Notes: generated by a model from the letters alone, not told the origin. Positions 4,856 through 61,900 are shown, numbered from the stretch's first letter. The stretch: DNA of 64,000 bases from Candidatus Nomurabacteria bacterium (GCA_023267215.1 JAHFNS010000001.1:98736-162735), one strand, 5' to 3'. Numbers and translations: made by a program.

Positions 4856-5944
4856 ATGAACATATTGATTTTTATAATAATTTTATTAGTTTTGGTGCTT
4901 GTTCATGAATTTGGGCATTTTTTTACTGCTAAAAGATTTGGTATTAGAGTAGATGAATTTGGTTTTGGTTTTCCTCCAAAATTATTTGGTATAAAAAAAG
5001 GGGAGACAGAATATAGTATTAATCTTCTACCAATTGGTGGATTTGTGAAAATTTTTGGCGAAGATCCAAACGAAGAAAATACAGTAGGACCAGATGCTGC
5101 TAGGAGTTTTGTAAATAAACCAAAATATAAACAAGCAATAGTTCTTTTCGCTGGAGTCTTTGCGAATTTTTTACTTGCTTGGCTTTTGTTTTCTATTGGT
5201 TTTATATCAGGACTTCCTACTTCTGTTGGTAGTGAGCCGAAAGATTATAAAATGGAGAATGTGCATCTTGTTGTTCTTTCTGTTTTGCCAAATTCTCCAG
5301 CTCTAGCTGCTGGTCTAAAAACCGGAGATAAAATAGTTTATATAAAAAGTGGAGATGCTGTCACAGATCAAATCAGCCCTGAGACTGTCAAATCTTTTGT
5401 TGCTTTAGGTAAACAATTAGACATGGCATATCTTCGTGGCAATGACCCGACTTATAATATGATCCAGGTTATTCCAAAAGATACTAATGGTACTTATGCA
5501 ATAGGTATTTCTATGGATCAGATAGGGACCGTTAAATTGCCCTTTTTTAATGCCTTTTGGGAGGGTTTAAAATTAGACTGGTCTGTTACAGAAGGTACTG
5601 TTGTGGGGCTTTATACGCTCATTGTAGGGGGTATTATGGGTAAAGGAAGCTTTGCGAACGTTACTGGTCCTGTCGGAATGGTGGGTATCGTAGGTAATGC
5701 GTATCAATTTGGTTTTGTATATTTATTCTCTTTCGCTGCTTTAATTTCAGTGAATTTGGCGATAATAAATCTGATTCCATTTCCAGCCCTAGATGGTGGT
5801 CGTCTCTTCTTTTTACTTATTGAAAAAATAAAAGGTTCTCGTATGAATCCTAAATTTGCAAATACTGCAAACATGGTGGGCTTTGCAATTTTAATTATTC
5901 TCATGCTTCTTGTCACTTATCATGATGTAGTTAAATTATTTTGA
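4856..5944 (+). CDS. rseP: RIP metalloprotease RseP (site-2 protease, M50) with PDZ domain
   Basis: HEFGHFFTAKRFG (HExxH) in TM1, PDZ-like LAAGLKTGDKIV, C-terminal LDGG motif (ALDGGRLFF). Confidence 0.85.
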   Translation: MNILIFIIILLVLVLVHEFGHFFTAKRFGIRVDEFGFGFPPKLFGIKKGETEYSINLLPIGGFVKIFGEDPNEENTVGPDAARSFVNKPKYKQAIVLFAGVFANFLLAWLLFSIGFISGLPTSVGSEPKDYKMENVHLVVLSVLPNSPALAAGLKTGDKIVYIKSGDAVTDQISPETVKSFVALGKQLDMAYLRGNDPTYNMIQVIPKDTNGTYAIGISMDQIGTVKLPFFNAFWEGLKLDWSVTEGTVVGLYTLIVGGIMGKGSFANVTGPVGMVGIVGNAYQFGFVYLFSFAALISVNLAIINLIPFPALDGGRLFFLLIEKIKGSRMNPKFANTANMVGFAILIILMLLVTYHDVVKLF

Positions 5945-54193: not shown

Positions 54194-54592
54194 TTATCTA
54201 TTTAAATAAGTAACGGTGAGCTGTAAGACAGTCGCAAACATAACCCATAAAAGATATGGAATGTTGACAAGAGCAACCCATTTCACATATGGATAAATGA
54301 TTATCAACGCCCAAATCAAGGTTCCTAAAACGAGAAGTATGTCTATCGCTGCTAAATAATTGTTCTGCAAAGTAAATTGGAAATAAGTAAAAGATAAATT
54401 GAAAATAAGATTGAGGATAAAAGGAATCAAAACAAAAACTGGTAATTCTTTTTTGAAAACTTTATAAAATACTGTCCCAAAAGAAAAAATAATAATTGCA
54501 TAAAGTACACTCCACACTGGACCAAAGAGCCAAGAAGGTGGAGCCCAAGATGGTTTTATAAGTTGCTGATACCAAGAATAAGATGTATTCAT
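54194..54592 (-). CDS. tspO: tryptophan-rich sensory protein TspO/MBR
   Basis: WYQQLIKPSWAPPSWLFGPVWSVLY signature. 5 TM, 132 aa. Confidence 0.7.
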   Translation of the reverse strand: MNTSYSWYQQLIKPSWAPPSWLFGPVWSVLYAIIIFSFGTVFYKVFKKELPVFVLIPFILNLIFNLSFTYFQFTLQNNYLAAIDILLVLGTLIWALIIIYPYVKWVALVNIPYLLWVMFATVLQLTVTYLNR

Positions 54593-56202: not shown

Positions 56203-56460
56203 CTATGAAAGATGTTTAGAAACAAGCTTTGTCATTTCAAACATATTGACTACTTTTTTACCACCAAATACTTCCTTAAGGAGAGCATCAGCATTGATAT
56301 TACGCTTATTCTTTGGGTCTTGAAGATTATTCTTCTTGATATACACCCACAATGCCTTTACCACTTCAGATCTAGGCATAGAACCTTTACCGACTACTGC
56401 TGCTAATTGGAGACTCACACTCATTGGCTTCATAAATGCGGAAACTTTTTTTACTACCAT
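56203..56460 (-). CDS. SWIB/MDM2-domain protein
   Basis: PRSEVVKALWVYIKKNNLQDPKNKRNINADALLKEVFGGKKVVNMFEMTKLVSKHL matches the SWIB fold signature. Confidence 0.65.
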   Translation of the reverse strand: MVVKKVSAFMKPMSVSLQLAAVVGKGSMPRSEVVKALWVYIKKNNLQDPKNKRNINADALLKEVFGGKKVVNMFEMTKLVSKHLS

Positions 56461-56531
56461 ATTTTTTTTATTAATTAATAATATTTATATATTATAGCAC
56501 ATTTTATTAAGAATAATAGTCATATATAAAA

Positions 56532-56801
56532 TTAAAATTTATATCCTTCAGATTTTAAAATTCTTTTCTTTTTATCCGGCCCCCGATTGTATCCACCAAG
56601 CCCTCCATCAGAACGAATGACTCTATGGCAGGGAATTTTAGGGTTGTGATTTCTATTTAAAATATTCCCAACTGCCCGACTCGCTTTTATATTCCCTGCT
56701 CTCCTCGCCACTTCCTTATACGTCAAAACTTTTCCTTTTGGAATTTTCTTAACAACTTCATATACTTTTTCTGAAAAAGATTTCATATCTAGAATATTCA
56801 T
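56532..56801 (-). CDS. MGMT-family protein (methylated-DNA-protein-cysteine methyltransferase DNA-binding domain only)
   Basis: VPKGKVLTYKEVARRAGNIKASRAVGNILNRNHNPKIPCHRVIRSDGGLGGY, i.e. PCHRV active-site motif in an 89-aa stand-alone C-terminal domain. Confidence 0.75.
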   Translation of the reverse strand: MNILDMKSFSEKVYEVVKKIPKGKVLTYKEVARRAGNIKASRAVGNILNRNHNPKIPCHRVIRSDGGLGGYNRGPDKKKRILKSEGYKF

Positions 56802-56825
56802 CCCAACAAACTCCAGTTTGTAAGG
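56801..56825. promoter_or_regulatory. palindromic operator-like motif (copy 1 of 3), cccaACAAACTccAGTTTGTaagga
   Basis: Abuts the MGMT start codon. The same 14-16 nt palindrome recurs at ~58881..58904 and ~59214..59238. Confidence 0.45.
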
Positions 56826-56838
56826 ATATTAATAATAC

Positions 56839-57084
56839 TTAATCTTCAATTATTAAAAGTTTACTTTCGCTTTGATGCCCGTTTATGATGCGTATTTTGG
56901 AAAATGGAAGTTTAAAATGCAAAGAAAGAAGCTCTATCACTCGCTTATTGGCTAAATTACGCTCAGCTTTTTCTTTGACAGAAACTAAAAAATGATCTTC
57001 CGATTTTTGTTTCAGAGATTCCTTTTTCGCCTTAGTTGCAACTTTCACATGAATGTATTTCATTTTATTAAAACCAAATCTCAA
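56839..57084 (-). CDS. DUF167 (YggU-like) protein, copy a
   Basis: YIHVKVATKAKKESLKQKSEDHFLVSVKEKAERNLANKRVIELLSLHFKLPFSKIRIINGHQSESKLLII matches the DUF167 pattern. Probable start MKYIHV. Confidence 0.6.
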   Translation of the reverse strand: MRFGFNKMKYIHVKVATKAKKESLKQKSEDHFLVSVKEKAERNLANKRVIELLSLHFKLPFSKIRIINGHQSESKLLIIED

Positions 57085-57463
57085 TAGTAATTAAAATATC
57101 TATGCCATCATAAAGATTTTCCTGAAAGCGGATTTGTTTTTTGAGAGGCAAAATGTATGTCGGAGAATACCAATCCGGGAAAATAGAAGTCGTCCACTCC
57201 GTCTTCTTTATCTTCGCCTTGGCATAGACAGCTCCGAACCCTCTCCTCAGCTTCCCCTTCTGCATTTCCCTAATCTTCGCCGAAATATCCTCCGGCACCC
57301 GCGCAAATCTCCAAGCCGAATCTTTTTCGCTCTTGTCATACCCGTATACCCAAACAATAACCTTACTCTTAAACCTAAAAGTCCCTCTTATCTTCCCTTT
57401 TCTAATTTTTTTAGTTTTAGATTTTAGATTCTTTGGCATTAATTTTCCATACTCCTTTTTCAC
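57068..57463 (-). CDS. DUF1905 family protein, copy a
   Basis: FRFKSKVIVW...AWRFARVPEDISAKIREMQKGKLRRGFGAVYAKAKIKKTEWTTSIFPDWYSPTYILPLKKQIR matches the DUF1905 beta-barrel pattern. Lys-rich N-terminal extension. Confidence 0.6.
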   Translation of the reverse strand: MKKEYGKLMPKNLKSKTKKIRKGKIRGTFRFKSKVIVWVYGYDKSEKDSAWRFARVPEDISAKIREMQKGKLRRGFGAVYAKAKIKKTEWTTSIFPDWYSPTYILPLKKQIRFQENLYDGIDILITIEIWF

Positions 57464-58304
57464 GAAAAGCTGGGATTGTTTGACGTCTAGCCATATTAAT
57501 CAAACTGGCTAAAGATTGTAAATTTTTCTTTGCATATTCTGCCAGAGTTATTATTTCGGCACCCTTTAAATATGCAATTCTTTTATTTAGACTTTCAGAA
57601 AGAGCTAAATATAAAACTTGTTCCATTTCTTTTGTTGATTTTTTAACTTTAAAATTTGAAAAAGTTTTGTAATATATATGCTTTTCTTTATCACGAATAA
57701 TAATATTCGGATAACCAAATTCTTGAAGCTGTAAATTAATAAGGACACGACCGATACGCCCATTACCGTCACAAAATGGATGAATATGTTCAAATTCTAA
57801 ATGAAAATAAGCTATTTTTTTAAAAATATTTATATCATGATCTGTTTTATAATCATTCAATAATACTTCTACCATTCTCATGACATGTTCTGGTGCAGGT
57901 GCAATATGGTTACTGACTCTAACAAATTCACCTGCTTTTCTAAATCTACCAGCAATAGAATCATCTATTCCACCGATAAGTAAGCTATGAATAAAAAGAA
58001 CCGTTTCTTGGTTTAAGACGATGCTATTTTTTTTTGCTTTTATATATTCATAAACTCGAGCTAAATTTTTTGCTTCAAAAACCTCACGGAGTGAATAATT
58101 TTTGGAAACTTCCAAATCTAAAAGAATCTTCTCTGTGTCTGGAAGAGTGAGTGTTGAATTTTCAATTGCATTTGAGTTGTATACGGATTCAGCAAGCTCT
58201 ACTTCGTCTAAAACTGTCAAAAGAGACTCTTTCCCCTTTTTTAGAGAATCAAGAGACTTTTTTAAATTTATTATATTTTGAAACTTCTTATTTACTTTAT
58301 TCAT
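57417..58304 (-). CDS. Fic/DOC-family protein (class II-like, internal inhibitory motif)
   Basis: Fic motif HPFCDGNGRIGRVLINLQL. N-terminal SNAIEN fits the (S/T)xxxE(G/N) inhibitory-helix motif. Confidence 0.8.
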   Translation of the reverse strand: MNKVNKKFQNIINLKKSLDSLKKGKESLLTVLDEVELAESVYNSNAIENSTLTLPDTEKILLDLEVSKNYSLREVFEAKNLARVYEYIKAKKNSIVLNQETVLFIHSLLIGGIDDSIAGRFRKAGEFVRVSNHIAPAPEHVMRMVEVLLNDYKTDHDINIFKKIAYFHLEFEHIHPFCDGNGRIGRVLINLQLQEFGYPNIIIRDKEKHIYYKTFSNFKVKKSTKEMEQVLYLALSESLNKRIAYLKGAEIITLAEYAKKNLQSLASLINMARRQTIPAFREKGVWKINAKESKI

Positions 58305-58420
58305 AAATATATACTTATAGTATAGTCTATTTACTGTTTATTGTCAAGTAAAACGTAAATATGAGGTAAAAACAGCCTATATTTACGTTTTTTAATTTTA
58401 ACCTTTAAATTCTTTGGCAT

Positions 58421-58864
58421 TTATTTATCAAACTGACTAACCCAAAATATTTTTTTATCTTTTAACCATTTTAGTATCTGTTTCTTTAATGCAATTGGGT
58501 AAATTTTTTCTTTCATAAATTGCTCTTTGGAAAATAGAGCAAATTCAATATGGCCTTCTTGGCTTTTTGTTTTAATCTTTTTTACTTCTGTTTTAAATAC
58601 TAAATTTATTTCGTGACGTCTTTGCCCTTCTTCTATATAAATATTATCAGCAACACCAATAAAGGTTATTTTCTTTACTTCTATATTTAATTCTTCCTTA
58701 AATTCACGTTTAATCGCTTTTTCTATTTTTTCATTAAATTCTAAATGCCCACCTGGTAAAAAATAGTTACCATGTTTCTTACTCCTACAAATTAATATTT
58801 TATTATTATCAAAAACAACAGCTCGAATAATAACCTCAACTATATTTTTATATTTATATTTCAT
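58421..58864 (-). CDS. NUDIX hydrolase
   Basis: Nudix box GGHLEFNEKIEKAIKREFKEELNI. Confidence 0.7.
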   Translation of the reverse strand: MKYKYKNIVEVIIRAVVFDNNKILICRSKKHGNYFLPGGHLEFNEKIEKAIKREFKEELNIEVKKITFIGVADNIYIEEGQRRHEINLVFKTEVKKIKTKSQEGHIEFALFSKEQFMKEKIYPIALKKQILKWLKDKKIFWVSQFDK

Positions 58865-58880
58865 ATTTTTATATTCATCC

Positions 58881-58904
58881 TTACAAACTCCAGTTTGTAA
58901 GGAT
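58881..58904. promoter_or_regulatory. palindromic operator-like motif (copy 2), ccttACAAACTccAGTTTGTaagg
   Basis: Perfect 11-bp inverted arms. Lies between the NUDIX start and the ArsR-like stop. Confidence 0.45.
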
Positions 58905-58905
58905 G

Positions 58906-59193
58906 TTAATTAAACTGTTGAAATGATTTTAAAAAGTTAACAAACATTTTACCATATGGAGATAAAGTGTGTTCGACAAACTTACCTTTATATCTTTTAT
59001 TAACTAATCCTGCTTGATGAAGTCTTCGAGTGTGTTCACCTATTGTTTTTGGATTTGCCTTAAGCGTATCAATAATATCATCGAGAGTTATCCCATTTTC
59101 TTTTTGTACAAGGAGCAATATCTCAATGCGATAGTGATTTGCTATCCCTTTTAGATGTCGCTCCATTTGTTTTGCTGTTTTTATTTTTGCCAT
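58906..59193 (-). CDS. ArsR/SmtB-family HTH transcriptional regulator
   Basis: Start taken at MAKIKTAKQMERHLKGIANHYRIEILLLV. wHTH ...TIGEHTRRLHQAGLVNKR. Track ORF extends upstream over the palindrome. Confidence 0.6.
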   Translation of the reverse strand: MAKIKTAKQMERHLKGIANHYRIEILLLVQKENGITLDDIIDTLKANPKTIGEHTRRLHQAGLVNKRYKGKFVEHTLSPYGKMFVNFLKSFQQFN

Positions 59194-59213
59194 ATTTATA
59201 TTATATACTACAT

Positions 59214-59238
59214 CCTTACAAACTCCAGTTTGTTGGGG
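59214..59238. promoter_or_regulatory. palindromic operator-like motif (copy 3), ccttACAAACTccAGTTTGTtgggg
   Basis: ~20 nt upstream of the proposed ArsR-like start, suggesting autoregulation. Confidence 0.45.
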
Positions 59239-59251
59239 TGTTAATTTGATA

Positions 59252-59623
59252 TTAGAACCAGATTTGGATTGAGATTGAGATTTGGATATCATCATAAAGA
59301 TTTTCCTTGTAACGGATTTGTTTTTTGAGAGGCAAAATGTATGTCGGAGAATACCAGTCTGGAAAAATTGAAGTCGTCCACTCCGTCTTCTTTATCTTCG
59401 CTTTGGCATAAATAGCTCCCCATCCCCGTCGTGGCTTCCCTTTCTGCATCTTTTTAATCTTAGCCGAAATGTCCTCCGGTACCCGAGCGAATCTCCAAGC
59501 ACTATCAATATTCTCCCTATTAGTACCGTAGCTCCAAACAATAACTTTACTTTTGAATTTGAAAATCCATTTTATTTTGCTTTGACTAATTTTTTTAGTT
59601 TTAATATTTAAATTCTTTTGCAT
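59252..59623 (-). CDS. DUF1905 family protein, copy b (paralog of 57068..57463)
   Basis: AWRFARVPEDISAKIKKMQKGKPRRGWGAIYAKAKIKKTEWTTSIFPDWYSPTYILPLKKQIRYKENLYD is almost identical to copy a. Underlying DNA is also near-identical over more than 130 nt. Confidence 0.6.
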   Translation of the reverse strand: MQKNLNIKTKKISQSKIKWIFKFKSKVIVWSYGTNRENIDSAWRFARVPEDISAKIKKMQKGKPRRGWGAIYAKAKIKKTEWTTSIFPDWYSPTYILPLKKQIRYKENLYDDIQISISIQIWF

Positions 59624-59671
59624 TTTTTAAAAAAATTCATTCATCTTGTATATATTTTTTTAATATATCAT

Positions 59672-59950
59672 TTAATCTTCAATTACCAAAAGCTTACTTG
59701 GGCTTCTGTGGCCATTTATGATTCTTGTTTTTGACACAGGTATTTTGAAATGAAGAGAGATGAGTTCCAACACTCTTTTATTAGCTAAATTACGCTCGGC
59801 TTTTTCTTTGACCGAAACTTCAAAATGATCCTCAGATTTTTGCTTAAAGGATTCTTTTTTCATTCCAGCCATAACTTTTACGTGAATGTATTTCATTTTA
59901 TTATTTACTTTTTCAATGCAATTGGGTAAATTTTTTCTTTCATAAATCAA
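59672..59950 (-). CDS. DUF167 (YggU-like) protein, copy b
   Basis: MKYIHVKVMAGMKKESFKQKSEDHFEVSVKEKAERNLANKRVLELISLHFKIPVSKTRIINGHRSPSKLLVIED, paralog of 56839..57084. Confidence 0.6.
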   Translation of the reverse strand: MIYERKNLPNCIEKVNNKMKYIHVKVMAGMKKESFKQKSEDHFEVSVKEKAERNLANKRVLELISLHFKIPVSKTRIINGHRSPSKLLVIED

Positions 59951-60037: not shown

Positions 60038-60601
60038 TTATTTAATACAAGCTGCTTTGGCTGTTGTGAAAGCTGTATTAGCTGCTGTTTTAGCATCTTT
60101 CATAGCTACGACAGCTGCATCCTTTGCAGACTTACGAGCTGCCACGGCTGCTGTTTTAGCATCTTTCATAGCTACGACAGCTGCATCCTTTGCAGACTTA
60201 CGAGCTGCTATAGCTGTTGTCATAGCTGTCTTTTTAGCTGTTGCATTAGTCAAGGCTTTTGCTGCTGCTACAGCTATCGTATAAGTGCTATTAGCATCTT
60301 TAATAGCTCCTGTATAAGTAGTATTTGAAGATTTAACTGCTGTAACATAGGTAGTATTAGCATCTTTTACTGCTGCAGTGTAAGTTTTATTAGCATCTTT
60401 TACCGCTACCTTTTTTGCAGTAGTCGCATCTGCAACACATTTTTTTTGATCAACTGTTAATTTAGTTTTAGAAGTCGGTGCACTTGTTGTCGTTGGAGTA
60501 GTTACGTCAGTAGATGTAGTATTTTCTTGTGCATATGCAAGAGAAGATACAAACAATACACCAACCAACAATGATCCAACAAATAATTTTGATTTATTCA
60601 T
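60038..60601 (-). CDS. secreted Ala/Lys/Thr-rich repeat protein
   Basis: Signal peptide MNKSKLFVGSLLVGVLFVSSLAYAQ. Protein repeats KDANxTYTxAV and a perfect 22-aa tandem AARKSAKDAAVVAMKDAKTAAV x2. Confidence 0.6.
   Translation of the reverse strand: MNKSKLFVGSLLVGVLFVSSLAYAQENTTSTDVTTPTTTSAPTSKTKLTVDQKKCVADATTAKKVAVKDANKTYTAAVKDANTTYVTAVKSSNTTYTGAIKDANSTYTIAVAAAKALTNATAKKTAMTTAIAARKSAKDAAVVAMKDAKTAAVAARKSAKDAAVVAMKDAKTAANTAFTTAKAACIK
60081..60212. repeat. 66-bp perfect tandem duplication inside the repeat-protein gene
   Basis: gctgctgttttagcatctttcatagctacgacagctgcatcctttgcagacttacgagctgc occurs twice back to back (period 66 nt). Confidence 0.6.
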
Positions 60602-60724: not shown

Positions 60725-61900
60725 TTATTTTTTTCTATTCTCTCTAAAAGAATCATCAAATATCTCATAATAATCAGCATATATGTATTTCTGTCCATAA
60801 TCTATATTACCCAGAGACTCTAGAATTCCCAATTTCTTAAGTCTTTCAATAACCTTATAAGCACCTGGTGCAGTAAAACCAGTCCACTTCATAATTTCTG
60901 CTACACCAACTATTGGCTGACTAAAAAGTTTTCTAACAATTTCTAATGTTGACTCCGCTGATTTTTTACCTAATTTCTGCATTTTAGCAAAATCACGATC
61001 ACGTAAAGCTGTAATTTTTGTACAAGTTTCAATTGAAGAATCAGCTATTTCTATTACACCTTCAAGAAAAAATTCTAACCAACTATTAATATTAGAATCT
61101 TCGTCGTGATAATCTTGTAATTTCTGATAATATAGTTTTTGATATTTTTTGAAATAACTTGAAAGATATAAAACAGGTAATTCAAGTAACCCGATATGAT
61201 GAATAAACATCGCTATAAGTATTCTACCTGTTCTACCGTTGCCATCAGTAAAGGGATGAATTGTTTCAAATTGCGCATGTAAAAATGCAGCCTTTATTAA
61301 AGAAGGATAATCATCTTTATCGTTAATAAATTTTTCTAAATCATCAAGAGATTTATTCATATCTAAAACAGCAGGAGGAACAAAAGATGCATCACTTGGA
61401 GTTTTTCCTCCAATCCAATTTTGGGAATGACGAAATTCCCCAGGATAAGCATGTTGAGTAGAACGTGCATCCACCATGAGTCTTTCATGTAGCTCTTTAA
61501 TAAATCGTAAAGAAAATGGAAAATCTTTCACACGATCAATGCCATAATTTGCAGCTCTTATGTAGTGTTCTATGTCGTCTACATCTTTATTCTTTCTCTC
61601 TTTTTTTTCAGTGACTGGCGCCGCTACGGCATCTTGCATTGTAGCTTTCGTTCCTTCTATTTGACTTGAATAAGTTGCATCCTTAGCAACGAACATGAAA
61701 ACAAAATAATCTTTATCTGGTAAAAGACGAGTGATACCATCAAGTTTACCAACAAGACGAATTGCTTCCTCATGTTTTTTATACAACTTAGGACTGATAA
61801 AAAAACCTTCCTTGGGTGGAAAATCAAAAGGGGTAAAGGTTTTATATCCTCCTTTTTGCTCTATATATCTACCTATTTTTTGTTTGTTTATATTGCTCAT
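60725..61900 (-). CDS. Fic-family protein, long form with C-terminal winged-helix domain
   Basis: Fic motif HPFTDGNGRTGRILIAMFI. YSSQIEG fits the (S/T)xxxE(G/N) inhibitory motif. 391 aa. Confidence 0.8.
   Translation of the reverse strand: MSNINKQKIGRYIEQKGGYKTFTPFDFPPKEGFFISPKLYKKHEEAIRLVGKLDGITRLLPDKDYFVFMFVAKDATYSSQIEGTKATMQDAVAAPVTEKKERKNKDVDDIEHYIRAANYGIDRVKDFPFSLRFIKELHERLMVDARSTQHAYPGEFRHSQNWIGGKTPSDASFVPPAVLDMNKSLDDLEKFINDKDDYPSLIKAAFLHAQFETIHPFTDGNGRTGRILIAMFIHHIGLLELPVLYLSSYFKKYQKLYYQKLQDYHDEDSNINSWLEFFLEGVIEIADSSIETCTKITALRDRDFAKMQKLGKKSAESTLEIVRKLFSQPIVGVAEIMKWTGFTAPGAYKVIERLKKLGILESLGNIDYGQKYIYADYYEIFDDSFRENRKK

Follow-up and report, generated by a model that had tools for sequence, protein, structure and literature searches.

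Introduction

Small winged helix-turn-helix (wHTH) proteins of the SmtB/ArsR family include the autorepressors SmtB, ZiaR, AztR/AzuR and CadC as well as the non-metal regulators HlyU and SdpR. Their operators are 12-2-12 inverted repeats that overlap the −35 element and lie "upstream or within" the regulated genes (PMC8790569). In this study, a 64,000-nucleotide stretch of the genome of Candidatus Nomurabacteria bacterium (GCA_023267215.1, JAHFNS010000001.1:98736-162735; hereafter the window, with positions counted from its first letter) was analysed, in which a small protein of this type, hereafter the regulator, is encoded beside a 32-bp palindrome, hereafter S. Like the described autorepressors (PMC8790569), the regulator is a small HTH_5-type wHTH protein; S likewise has two imperfectly inverted arms around a 2-bp centre and overlaps the −35 region of the regulator gene itself, with further repeats upstream of or within candidate targets. 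The locus differs from the SmtB/ArsR systems in that the arms of S are 15 bp rather than 12 bp long, the regulator contains no cysteine and scores below the metalloregulator cut-off, a second site lies on its stop codon in more than 90% of loci, its mRNA is predicted to be leaderless, some copies are not at promoters, and no efflux or detoxification gene is conserved as a partner.

Other described systems share part of this arrangement. RAYT genes are flanked by repetitive extragenic palindromes (REPs), and the REP/RAYT pairs and the Rickettsia palindromic elements (RPEs) resemble the present locus in that a gene is flanked by its associated palindrome and copies occur at gene 3′ ends and in convergent spacers; copies in frame within a coding gene, here that of TspO, are also known for RPEs. 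However, no HUH transposase domain is encoded here and S is present in few copies per genome instead of the tens to hundreds of REPs, while RPEs are ~100-150 bp long, compared with 32 bp for S, whose copy at the regulator gene moreover shows a precise promoter geometry. In the replication terminator systems Tus/TerB and RTP/IRI, a small DNA-binding protein likewise has a site on its own promoter and few further oriented sites, tus being autoregulated through TerB and rtp through IRI; in contrast, S is almost symmetric, no placement around a terminus is seen in the window, and the regulator belongs to the ArsR family by sequence. Integron attC sites and Acinetobacter pdif sites are palindromic sites that bound small accessory modules of differing order in relatives, as S does, but here no recombinase is linked, neither an attC nor a dif (11-6-11) architecture is present, and most modules lack a site of their own. 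Neither the regulator nor the motif was found described in literature searches on Patescibacteria (candidate phyla radiation, CPR).

Results

Three copies of S in the window

A first-pass annotation made from the window alone had reported a palindrome occurring three times within 2.5 kb and perfect in its second copy, which was confirmed by exact and mismatch searches and by shuffling. The core ACAAACTCCAGTTTGT is present exactly at 56806-56821, 58883-58898 and 59218-59233; with up to one mismatch the same three matches were found, compared with none in 100 dinucleotide-preserving shuffles, and with up to two mismatches no additional copy was found in the whole 64-kb window. Three mismatches bring the search to chance level (11 found vs 8.8 expected in the window). 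The density of S is thus three copies in 2.5 kb and none in the remaining 61 kb. Comparison with relatives showed that the core belongs to a longer, 32-bp palindrome (15-2-15), and a position matrix built from the matches gave the consensus ACATCCTTACAAACT-GG-AGTTTGTAAGGATGT; within the window, copy 2 (S2) is a perfect 13-2-13 palindrome. All genes adjoining the three copies are on the minus strand, and the 32-mers end 11 nt before the MGMT start (S1; MKSF at 56786), 10 nt before the NUDIX ATG (S2; 58864) and 16 nt before the regulator ATG (S3; 59193), so that the reported position of the copies just upstream of these three starts is correct. Each copy also begins no more than 10 nt past the stop codon of the same-strand upstream gene (DUF167, regulator and DUF1905, respectively), which had not been mentioned earlier. 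The features that carry the argument are the following.

59210-59241, minus strand: S3, reading ACACCCCAACAAACTGGAGTTTGTAAGGATGT on the minus strand and starting 10 nt past the DUF1905B stop; predicted autoregulatory operator over the −35 region and spacer
59200-59205, minus strand: −10 hexamer TATAAT of the predicted regulator promoter, followed by 6 nt (59194-59199) and the ATG at 59193
58906-59193, minus strand: regulator, an ArsR/SmtB-type wHTH protein of 95 aa without cysteine; Pfam HTH_5; predicted S binder
58875-58906, minus strand: S2, the perfect copy, which shares its first base with the end of the regulator stop codon; predicted second binding site
56798-56829, minus strand: S1, ATATCCTTACAAACTGGAGTTTGTTGGGATGA, starting 9 nt past the DUF167A stop

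S follows the regulator across Patescibacteria

A search of one genome per species for homologues of the regulator yielded 79 loci at 61-92% identity (70-92% across most of them), all from Patescibacteria-type metagenome-assembled genomes, including Nomura-, Uhr-, Moran-, Kaiser-, Yanofsky-, Lipton- and Levyibacteria and Paceibacterota among others. When these loci were scored with a position matrix for S (189 clean sites; bimodal score distribution), S was found within 100 nt upstream of the regulator in 77/79 loci and within 100 nt downstream in 73/79, the second copy overlapping the stop codon of the regulator gene in >90% of loci. The orientation of S relative to the regulator is nearly uniform (107 vs 5). 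Additional copies amount to ~0.2 per kb near the regulator and fall to zero within 5 kb; beyond 3 kb, only ~3 sites were found in ~220 kb, i.e. about one per 70 kb. S is therefore not a sequence that is frequent genome-wide irrespective of context, since it stays with the regulator and is gone 4-5 kb away, and it is retained where relatives keep the regulator. In one locus (L078, 5001-5309), the regulator open reading frame (ORF) runs through the left arm of S and stops at the central TGA (CTTGAG), adding seven residues, so the centre of S can supply the stop codon.

The relationship between protein and palindrome extends to paralogues. Divergent paralogues with 54-65% identity, found in L078 (3760-4026), L191, L166, L199, L076 and L077, are flanked in the same layout by divergent palindromes of their own (S′), for example AYATTCCGACATTCT-TG-AGAATGTCGGAATRT and, in L077, AATCT-TG-AGATT, and these are also followed by a −10 hexamer and a leaderless ATG. 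In L078 and L191, a paralogue with S′ even stands beside the canonical regulator with S in one genome region. That paralogues carry matching divergent palindromes is the strongest argument of this study that the wHTH protein itself binds S, and excludes LexA, Xer and generic hairpins as explanations of the match. Together with the conservation of S at the ends of its own gene, it upholds the earlier view that the palindrome belongs to the ArsR-like wHTH protein and not to a dispersed repeat family; judged from these comparisons, the regulator and S very likely form a cognate pair. Residue-to-base covariation between protein and site (z up to 12) is significant by permutation, is confounded by phylogeny and is suggestive only.

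Another assignment of S would be to LexA, as an SOS box, with the wHTH gene merely a conserved member of the SOS regulon. The Gram-positive LexA box is GAAC-N4-GTTC, of which the core AAC-N4-GTT of S is reminiscent, and LexA is normally autoregulated; besides, several neighbours of S are repair genes (MGMT, GIY-YIG, RarA, methylpurine-DNA glycosylase and UvrC-like), and a few loci have lexA no more than 5 kb away. However, the three lexA genes found (in L045, L058 and L061) have no S upstream, and LexA cannot explain palindromes that vary with each wHTH paralogue. The LexA box was rejected on account of these lexA genes and is considered extremely unlikely. In two of these loci, L058 (518-1966, minus strand) and L045 (2-1111, minus strand), LexA (LexA_DNA_bind plus Peptidase_S24) is apparently fused to an N6/N4 DNA methyltransferase in one 482-aa ORF.

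The regulator is an ArsR/SmtB-type protein

The regulator matches Pfam HTH_5 (PF01022) with 28.9 bits against a gathering score of 22 (E=1e-6), which places it in the ArsR/SmtB family, and its best phmmer matches in PDB are HlyU (2.3e-4), ArsR (1.4e-3) and CadC (8e-3). The PF01022 match is precomputed for most of its homologues, and the protein family comprises 2273 clusters at 90% identity, which, where named, are ArsR-family or wHTH regulators of Patescibacteria. Only wHTH families in Pfam and NCBIfam match the regulator; no nuclease, transposase or HUH (Y1) domain was found in these collections. Against the NCBIfam model NF033788 (HTH_metalloreg) it scores 37.6 bits, under the cut-off of 55, and is thus not assigned to the metalloregulators by this model. 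The protein is devoid of cysteine, its C-terminal helix SPYGKMFVNFLKSFQQFN contains no cluster of His, Asp or Glu, and no alpha3N or alpha5 metal site is recognisable in its sequence; His14, His21, His55 and His76 are invariant. Because the regulator has neither cysteine nor a recognisable alpha5 metal site, its signal is probably not a classical metal or metalloid of the ArsR/SmtB family. An AlphaFold2 model built from 28 close homologues places helices at 8-18, 21-32, 38-45, 49-61 and 80-93 with strand-like segments between them, from which an a1-a2-a3-a4-wing-a5 topology is predicted at low confidence (mean predicted local distance difference test, pLDDT, only 57).

The upstream copy covers the predicted regulator promoter

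Among the relatives, the spacing between S and the regulator ATG has its peak at 16-18 nt. A nearly invariant TATAAT hexamer stands between them at +5 to +10, 6 nt ahead of the ATG; where the spacing is exactly 16 nt (32 loci), as it is in the window, the sequence reads (t)GTG-TATAAT-6 nt-ATG, with each TATAAT position kept in 28-32 of the 32. A −10 hexamer with at least 5/6 matches stands at this fixed offset in 80% of 107 regulator-upstream sites, compared with 7% on the mirror side. The distance of only 6 nt between the −10 and the ATG implies a leaderless mRNA, from which a start site can also be predicted. Relative to that predicted start, the centre of S lies near −32.5 and the central CTTGAG/CTGGAG falls at the −35 position, the frequent variant TTGAGA being located 16 bp from the −10. 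S, with its 15-2-15 structure covering the −35 and the spacer ahead of TATAAT and ATG, therefore corresponds to the own-promoter inverted-repeat operator of the family. A palindrome so placed over the promoter has the geometry of steric autorepression, and autorepression through S3 is predicted to be likely. The autoregulated ArsR-like repressor proposed in the first-pass annotation is thus supported by the overlap of S3 with a conserved TATAAT and a putative leaderless start. A consensus promoter/terminator scan of the window gave no significant excess and flagged a strong promoter upstream of Fic; the regulator promoter was missed because its −35 is weak.

The same arms could also form an RNA hairpin, serving as a terminator, as a 3′-end stabiliser or as a stem that hides a Shine-Dalgarno-like AAGGA and so couples translation. 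On the sense strand, S2 folds with −18 kcal/mol (z −6.9) and S1 with −11.5 kcal/mol (z −3.6), whereas S3 folds no better than shuffled sequences (−8.7 kcal/mol, z −1.3). The location of S no more than 10 nt past stop codons, its central GGAG, the AAGGA in its 3′ arm and the ~25 downstream ATGs that lie 3-15 nt past it are compatible with such a role. However, the central pairs 12/21 and 13/20 are Watson-Crick in only ~48% of sites (A-A in about half), and the arm pairs in only 70-75%. The arms of one site are complementary at 5.21/7 variable positions, compared with 4.93/7 when an arm is paired with other sites of the same locus (p=0.09) and 4.26 between loci, indicating that arm "covariation" occurs at the level of the lineage rather than of the individual hairpin; moreover, T-G pairs barely exceed C-A pairs (~85 vs 65 over four variable arm positions). 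No U tract follows S, whose flanks are TGT, TAT or TTT only, so that it does not have the features of an intrinsic terminator, and several dispersed copies have a distinct classical terminator behind them. At S, the scan picked up just a partial stem of S3 that is antisense to the genes (plus strand), and no Rfam family matched: at permissive E-values, positions 56400-59700 gave only chance-level miRNA-type matches (E≥0.2). Finally, the S upstream of the regulator precedes the predicted start site, and a generic hairpin needs neither a fixed sequence nor paralogue-matched variants. A hairpin role of S is therefore improbable.

A small wHTH protein with a ~30-bp site on its own promoter and a handful of further sites per genome is also reminiscent of a polar terminator of the RTP/Ter or Tus/Ter kind, which would block replication forks or transcription and for which the own-promoter copy would be autoregulatory. 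The orientation of the sites, consistent with gene direction (77 vs 23), and their occurrence in some convergent spacers are in line with this. Nevertheless, the arms are near symmetric with the asymmetry limited to the central 2-6 bp, both gene-flanking copies point in the same direction, the extra copies cluster at the regulator, and by sequence the protein belongs to the ArsR family and not to RTP. In addition, GC skew and gene orientation switch together at one place only in the window, at ~15 kb, 42 kb from the sites. A Ter-like function is thus very unlikely.

S at other gene boundaries

We favour the reading that the regulator is an autorepressor whose long operator was copied to nearby and a few distant gene boundaries, and that these copies probably function as roadblocks or operators; based on the sequence comparisons, its probability is roughly 0.6. 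The genes of the window to which the additional copies are relevant are listed below.

56532-56786, minus strand: MGMT-type alkyltransferase with the C-terminal domain only, 84 aa from MKSF, with the PCHR cysteine motif in the translation
58421-58864, minus strand: NUDIX hydrolase, 147 aa, with the NUDIX box (Pfam NUDIX 3.7e-16), downstream of S2
56839-58347, minus strand: block Fic-DUF1905A-DUF167A with its own near-consensus promoter, lying together with NUDIX between S2 and S1
58319-58347, minus strand: predicted promoter upstream of Fic, sigma70-like TTGACA-17-TATACT (11/12 matches), between NUDIX and Fic
59252-59950, minus strand: DUF167B-DUF1905B, upstream of S3 and paralogous to DUF167A/DUF1905A (56839-57463) in the opposite gene order

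The identities given earlier to the MGMT, NUDIX and ArsR-type proteins were upheld by Pfam, the MGMT domain matching DNA_binding_1 at 1.9e-30 and, in addition, TIGR00589 with 80.8 bits against a cut-off of 46.4. Homologue starts place the MGMT start at MKSF (56786); the other ATG, at 56801, falls within S1. Fic-DUF1905A-DUF167A, plus any read-through toward S1 and MGMT, probably have the Fic promoter as their own.

Control of an alkylation-repair protein and a nucleotide-sanitising enzyme by the regulator, as a small regulon for damage control, had been proposed from these neighbours and is borne out in part. The junction of S with an MGMT-only gene is kept in the window, L001, L002 and L005, with S intact and spacers of 11, 11, 6 and 16 nt, respectively, which makes control of MGMT by the regulator plausible. 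In contrast, among the regulator loci S stands before a NUDIX gene in this window only, so that NUDIX control, if real, would be a feature of this genome alone, and the neighbours of S are heterogeneous elsewhere. Downstream of S in the regulator loci, TspO (5), MGMT (4), membrane HTH_11 (4), GIY-YIG (3), glycosyltransferases (3), RarA (2) and YchF (2) were recorded. Dispersed copies are followed by MnmA, TspO, PheS, TatD, PurD, methylpurine glycosylase, MsrB, RsmI, S9, Ddl and NUDIX, and are preceded by L13, L31, RNase III and Obg among others. About a fifth of the dispersed copies are situated between convergent genes, and some are within ORFs. When the 890 proteins encoded up to 5 kb from the regulator, in both directions, in the 79 loci were clustered, neither a conserved partner gene nor a recurring tyrosine or serine recombinase was found. 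A real regulatory effect on MGMT or NUDIX is possible, with odds somewhat short of even, and a dedicated DNA or nucleotide damage regulon is doubtful.

A motif-first scan of metagenome contigs recovered 178 sites in 120 loci, of which 73 adjoin a regulator, 19 have a regulator elsewhere in the locus, 59 have none although at least 500 nt are available on both flanks, and 27 are near a contig end. A phage or mobile-element origin was rejected, as only one contig of the viral collection carried the motif. Copies without a regulator are preceded by a gene on the same strand in 48/65 cases, with the upstream gene ending within 20 nt in 23, and are followed by a same-strand gene in only 35/69. A good −10 at the fixed offset was found for 13% of the 93 copies past the regulator stop and 11% of 164 other copies, with 2-8% on the mirror side. 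The earlier description of the S1 and S2 surroundings as duplicated promoter modules is not supported, because only these 11-13% of non-regulator sites have a good −10 and the shared flanks in the window belong to a ~70-bp direct repeat. One copy, in L169 (3462-4392), is located between rplM (L13) and rpsI (S9), which are normally co-transcribed.

Several observations weigh against the favoured reading. Apart from the site upstream of the regulator, copies of S lack a directional −10 signal. About 20 of the regulator-less copies are in true convergent spacers, in some of which S fills nearly all of the ~36 nt; the junctions of dispersed copies (75 tandem, 22 convergent and 9 divergent) are near the baseline of 72%, 15% and 14%; and their orientation tracks the upstream gene (77 vs 23) more than the downstream gene (66 vs 39). 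The convergent spacers and this pattern of orientation are not explained by a classical operator. The neighbours of S include housekeeping operons such as rplM-rpsI, TspO being the commonest in a heterogeneous set. As for the protein, the regulator model is of low confidence, and a palindrome of 32 bp or more is long for a single wHTH dimer; other ArsR-family proteins, such as SmtB and CzrA, cope with long sites by placing two dimers on each.

Duplication and recombination at S

Around S, the closest relatives of the window (L001, L002, L003 and L005) have their genes in a different order. The order in the window is DUF167B-DUF1905B-S3-regulator-S2-NUDIX-Fic-DUF1905A-DUF167A-S1-MGMT, compared with Fic-DUF1905-S-regulator-S-MGMT in L001, and the comparison of loci indicates that S marks recombination breakpoints. 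Within the window, S1 and S2 share ~11 nt upstream and ~25 nt downstream, through ATGAAAT, thereby forming a ~70-bp direct repeat around NUDIX-Fic-DUF1905A-DUF167A; the first 7 nt of NUDIX and the preceding 18 nt are homologous to the leader and start of MGMT. The flanks reported as common to the MGMT and NUDIX copies are therefore real, and exist because the direct repeat brackets an inserted or duplicated block. The paralogous DUF167/DUF1905 pairs in opposite order likewise point to local duplication and rearrangement.

S is also present inside a protein-coding sequence. In L048 (2260), L200 (573-604) and L194 (578), it lies in frame in the loop between transmembrane segments 2 and 3 of TspO (QHPYILENVRML), where it is ~91% invariant while the adjoining codons vary, indicating that the DNA sequence itself is under selection there. 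In L010 (5291), the 3′ end of the regulator passes, precisely at S, into the C-terminal half of TspO, the half past S being all that is left of TspO; as read from the sequence, this junction is a deletion between two copies of S. The TspO copy of L059 (~5690-5790) is split by a 75-nt insertion. A GGGCAGGCAAA-containing sequence was observed inside the L059 insertion (~5700-5775) and just upstream of S in L200 (~1215-1235), and may represent a further family of short repeats in these genomes.

Breakpoints at S would also be produced if S were a site-specific recombination site bounding mobile modules in the manner of integron attC or Xer/pdif sites, with the regulator as one of the cassettes. 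In favour of this, the regulator, MGMT, SWIB, DUF1905, Fic-DUF1905 and NUDIX modules are permuted among close relatives with breakpoints at S, which has a consistent orientation just past stop codons and an asymmetric centre between symmetric arms. However, no recombinase recurs within 5 kb in the 79 loci, most genes of the region have no S, and the nearly perfect 32-bp S is unlike attC. Ordinary homologous recombination between repeats of 32 bp is enough to explain the breakpoints, while site-specific recombination leaves the −10/ATG geometry and the paralogue-specific palindromes unexplained. We therefore regard a recombination site as improbable, though slightly less so than a hairpin.

Alternatively, S could mainly be a palindromic element of low copy number, selfish or neutral and akin to REPs or RPEs, with a dedicated binding protein. 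It would spread by copy-and-paste and recombination and survive at gene 3′ ends, in convergent spacers and in tolerant loops, and S1 and S2 would be by-products of duplication and recombination between copies of S, with no effect on MGMT or NUDIX; such a view is compatible with S3 as a true operator and contests only the role of S1 and S2. Consistent with it are the location of S at the shuffled gene-order junctions between the window and L001, L002 and L003, the ~70-bp direct repeat of S1 and S2, the deletion in L010, the in-frame TspO copies and the interruption in L059. The dispersed copies also track upstream genes and sit in convergent spacers, a near-identical 32-mer is found in unrelated contexts, and the regulator gene is flanked by its own palindromes as RAYT genes are. 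On the other hand, the copy number is very low (about one per 70 kb beyond 3 kb, and three in 64 kb), the protein has no nuclease or transposase domain, no recombinase is linked, with one Phage_integrase match among the 36 genes upstream of dispersed sites, and S in TspO and at the S-MGMT junction is conserved far above its surroundings, which argues for function there. A predominantly selfish element is thus unlikely, although it is the most probable of the alternatives.

Other features of the window

The window contains two Fic-domain genes, at 57417-58304 and 60725-61900; together with the two DUF167/DUF1905 pairs, they make the accessory region around the regulator one of local duplication and rearrangement. 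A gene for a stand-alone SWIB/MDM2-domain protein of 85 aa (56203-56460, minus strand; Pfam 3e-31) adjoins MGMT; L002 and L003 carry this gene at the opposite side of the regulator. The Ala/Thr/Lys-rich protein of 187 aa encoded at 60038-60601 (minus strand) has a probable N-terminal signal or anchor and internal tandem repeats, with a 66-bp unit present 1.9 times at 100% identity and arrays of 33-bp period. The TspO gene of the window (54194-54592, minus strand) does not contain S. At ~14-16 kb, gene orientation changes from plus to minus and the cumulative GC skew peaks, which may represent a terminus-like point or a boundary of strand bias.

Discussion

Comparison of the loci provided the association of S with the regulator, the promoter geometry, the co-variation of paralogue and site and the breakpoints; binding, repression, the roadblock effect and the signal are what we infer from them. 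In the favoured reading, S would be the binding site of the adjacent 95-aa ArsR/SmtB-type protein and a long, 15-2-15 version of the 12-2-12 operators of the family. Dimers bound at S3 would block RNA polymerase and thereby cause autorepression, with release by some signal assumed by analogy with the family. As roadblocks or operators, S2 would limit the transcription that enters NUDIX from the regulator promoter, and S1 would limit that reaching MGMT from the Fic promoter. New copies of S would arise via duplication and recombination between existing copies and not by point mutation. As far as the sequence comparisons go, the two-operator bracketing, the apparently leaderless promoter, the non-promoter and in-ORF copies and the S-mediated rearrangement appear unusual for an SmtB/ArsR repressor.

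A broader possibility, which we consider rather unlikely and somewhat less probable than a selfish element, is that the wHTH protein and S constitute a lineage-wide system of boundary elements. An autoregulated protein bracketed by its own sites would then recognise a 32-bp palindrome copied to gene ends, convergent spacers and coding loops such as that of TspO. At these places, S with its protein would stop transcription in a sequence-specific manner, as a roadblock or terminator, and would also be a hotspot where accessory-gene modules are reshuffled. Such a system could be likened to a REP/RAYT partnership without the transposase, or to a bacterial protein-dependent terminator.

Almost nothing is known by experiment about gene regulation in Patescibacteria, which are mostly uncultured, and the regulator and S provide a sharply defined, testable regulator-site pair from this group, with S and S′ as natural specificity variants. 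If the non-promoter copies are functional roadblocks, they would indicate by what means neighbouring genes are insulated or gated in very compact genomes. Should they be relics, they would represent a transcription-factor operator that behaves like a low-copy mobile repeat and drives the shuffling of gene order.

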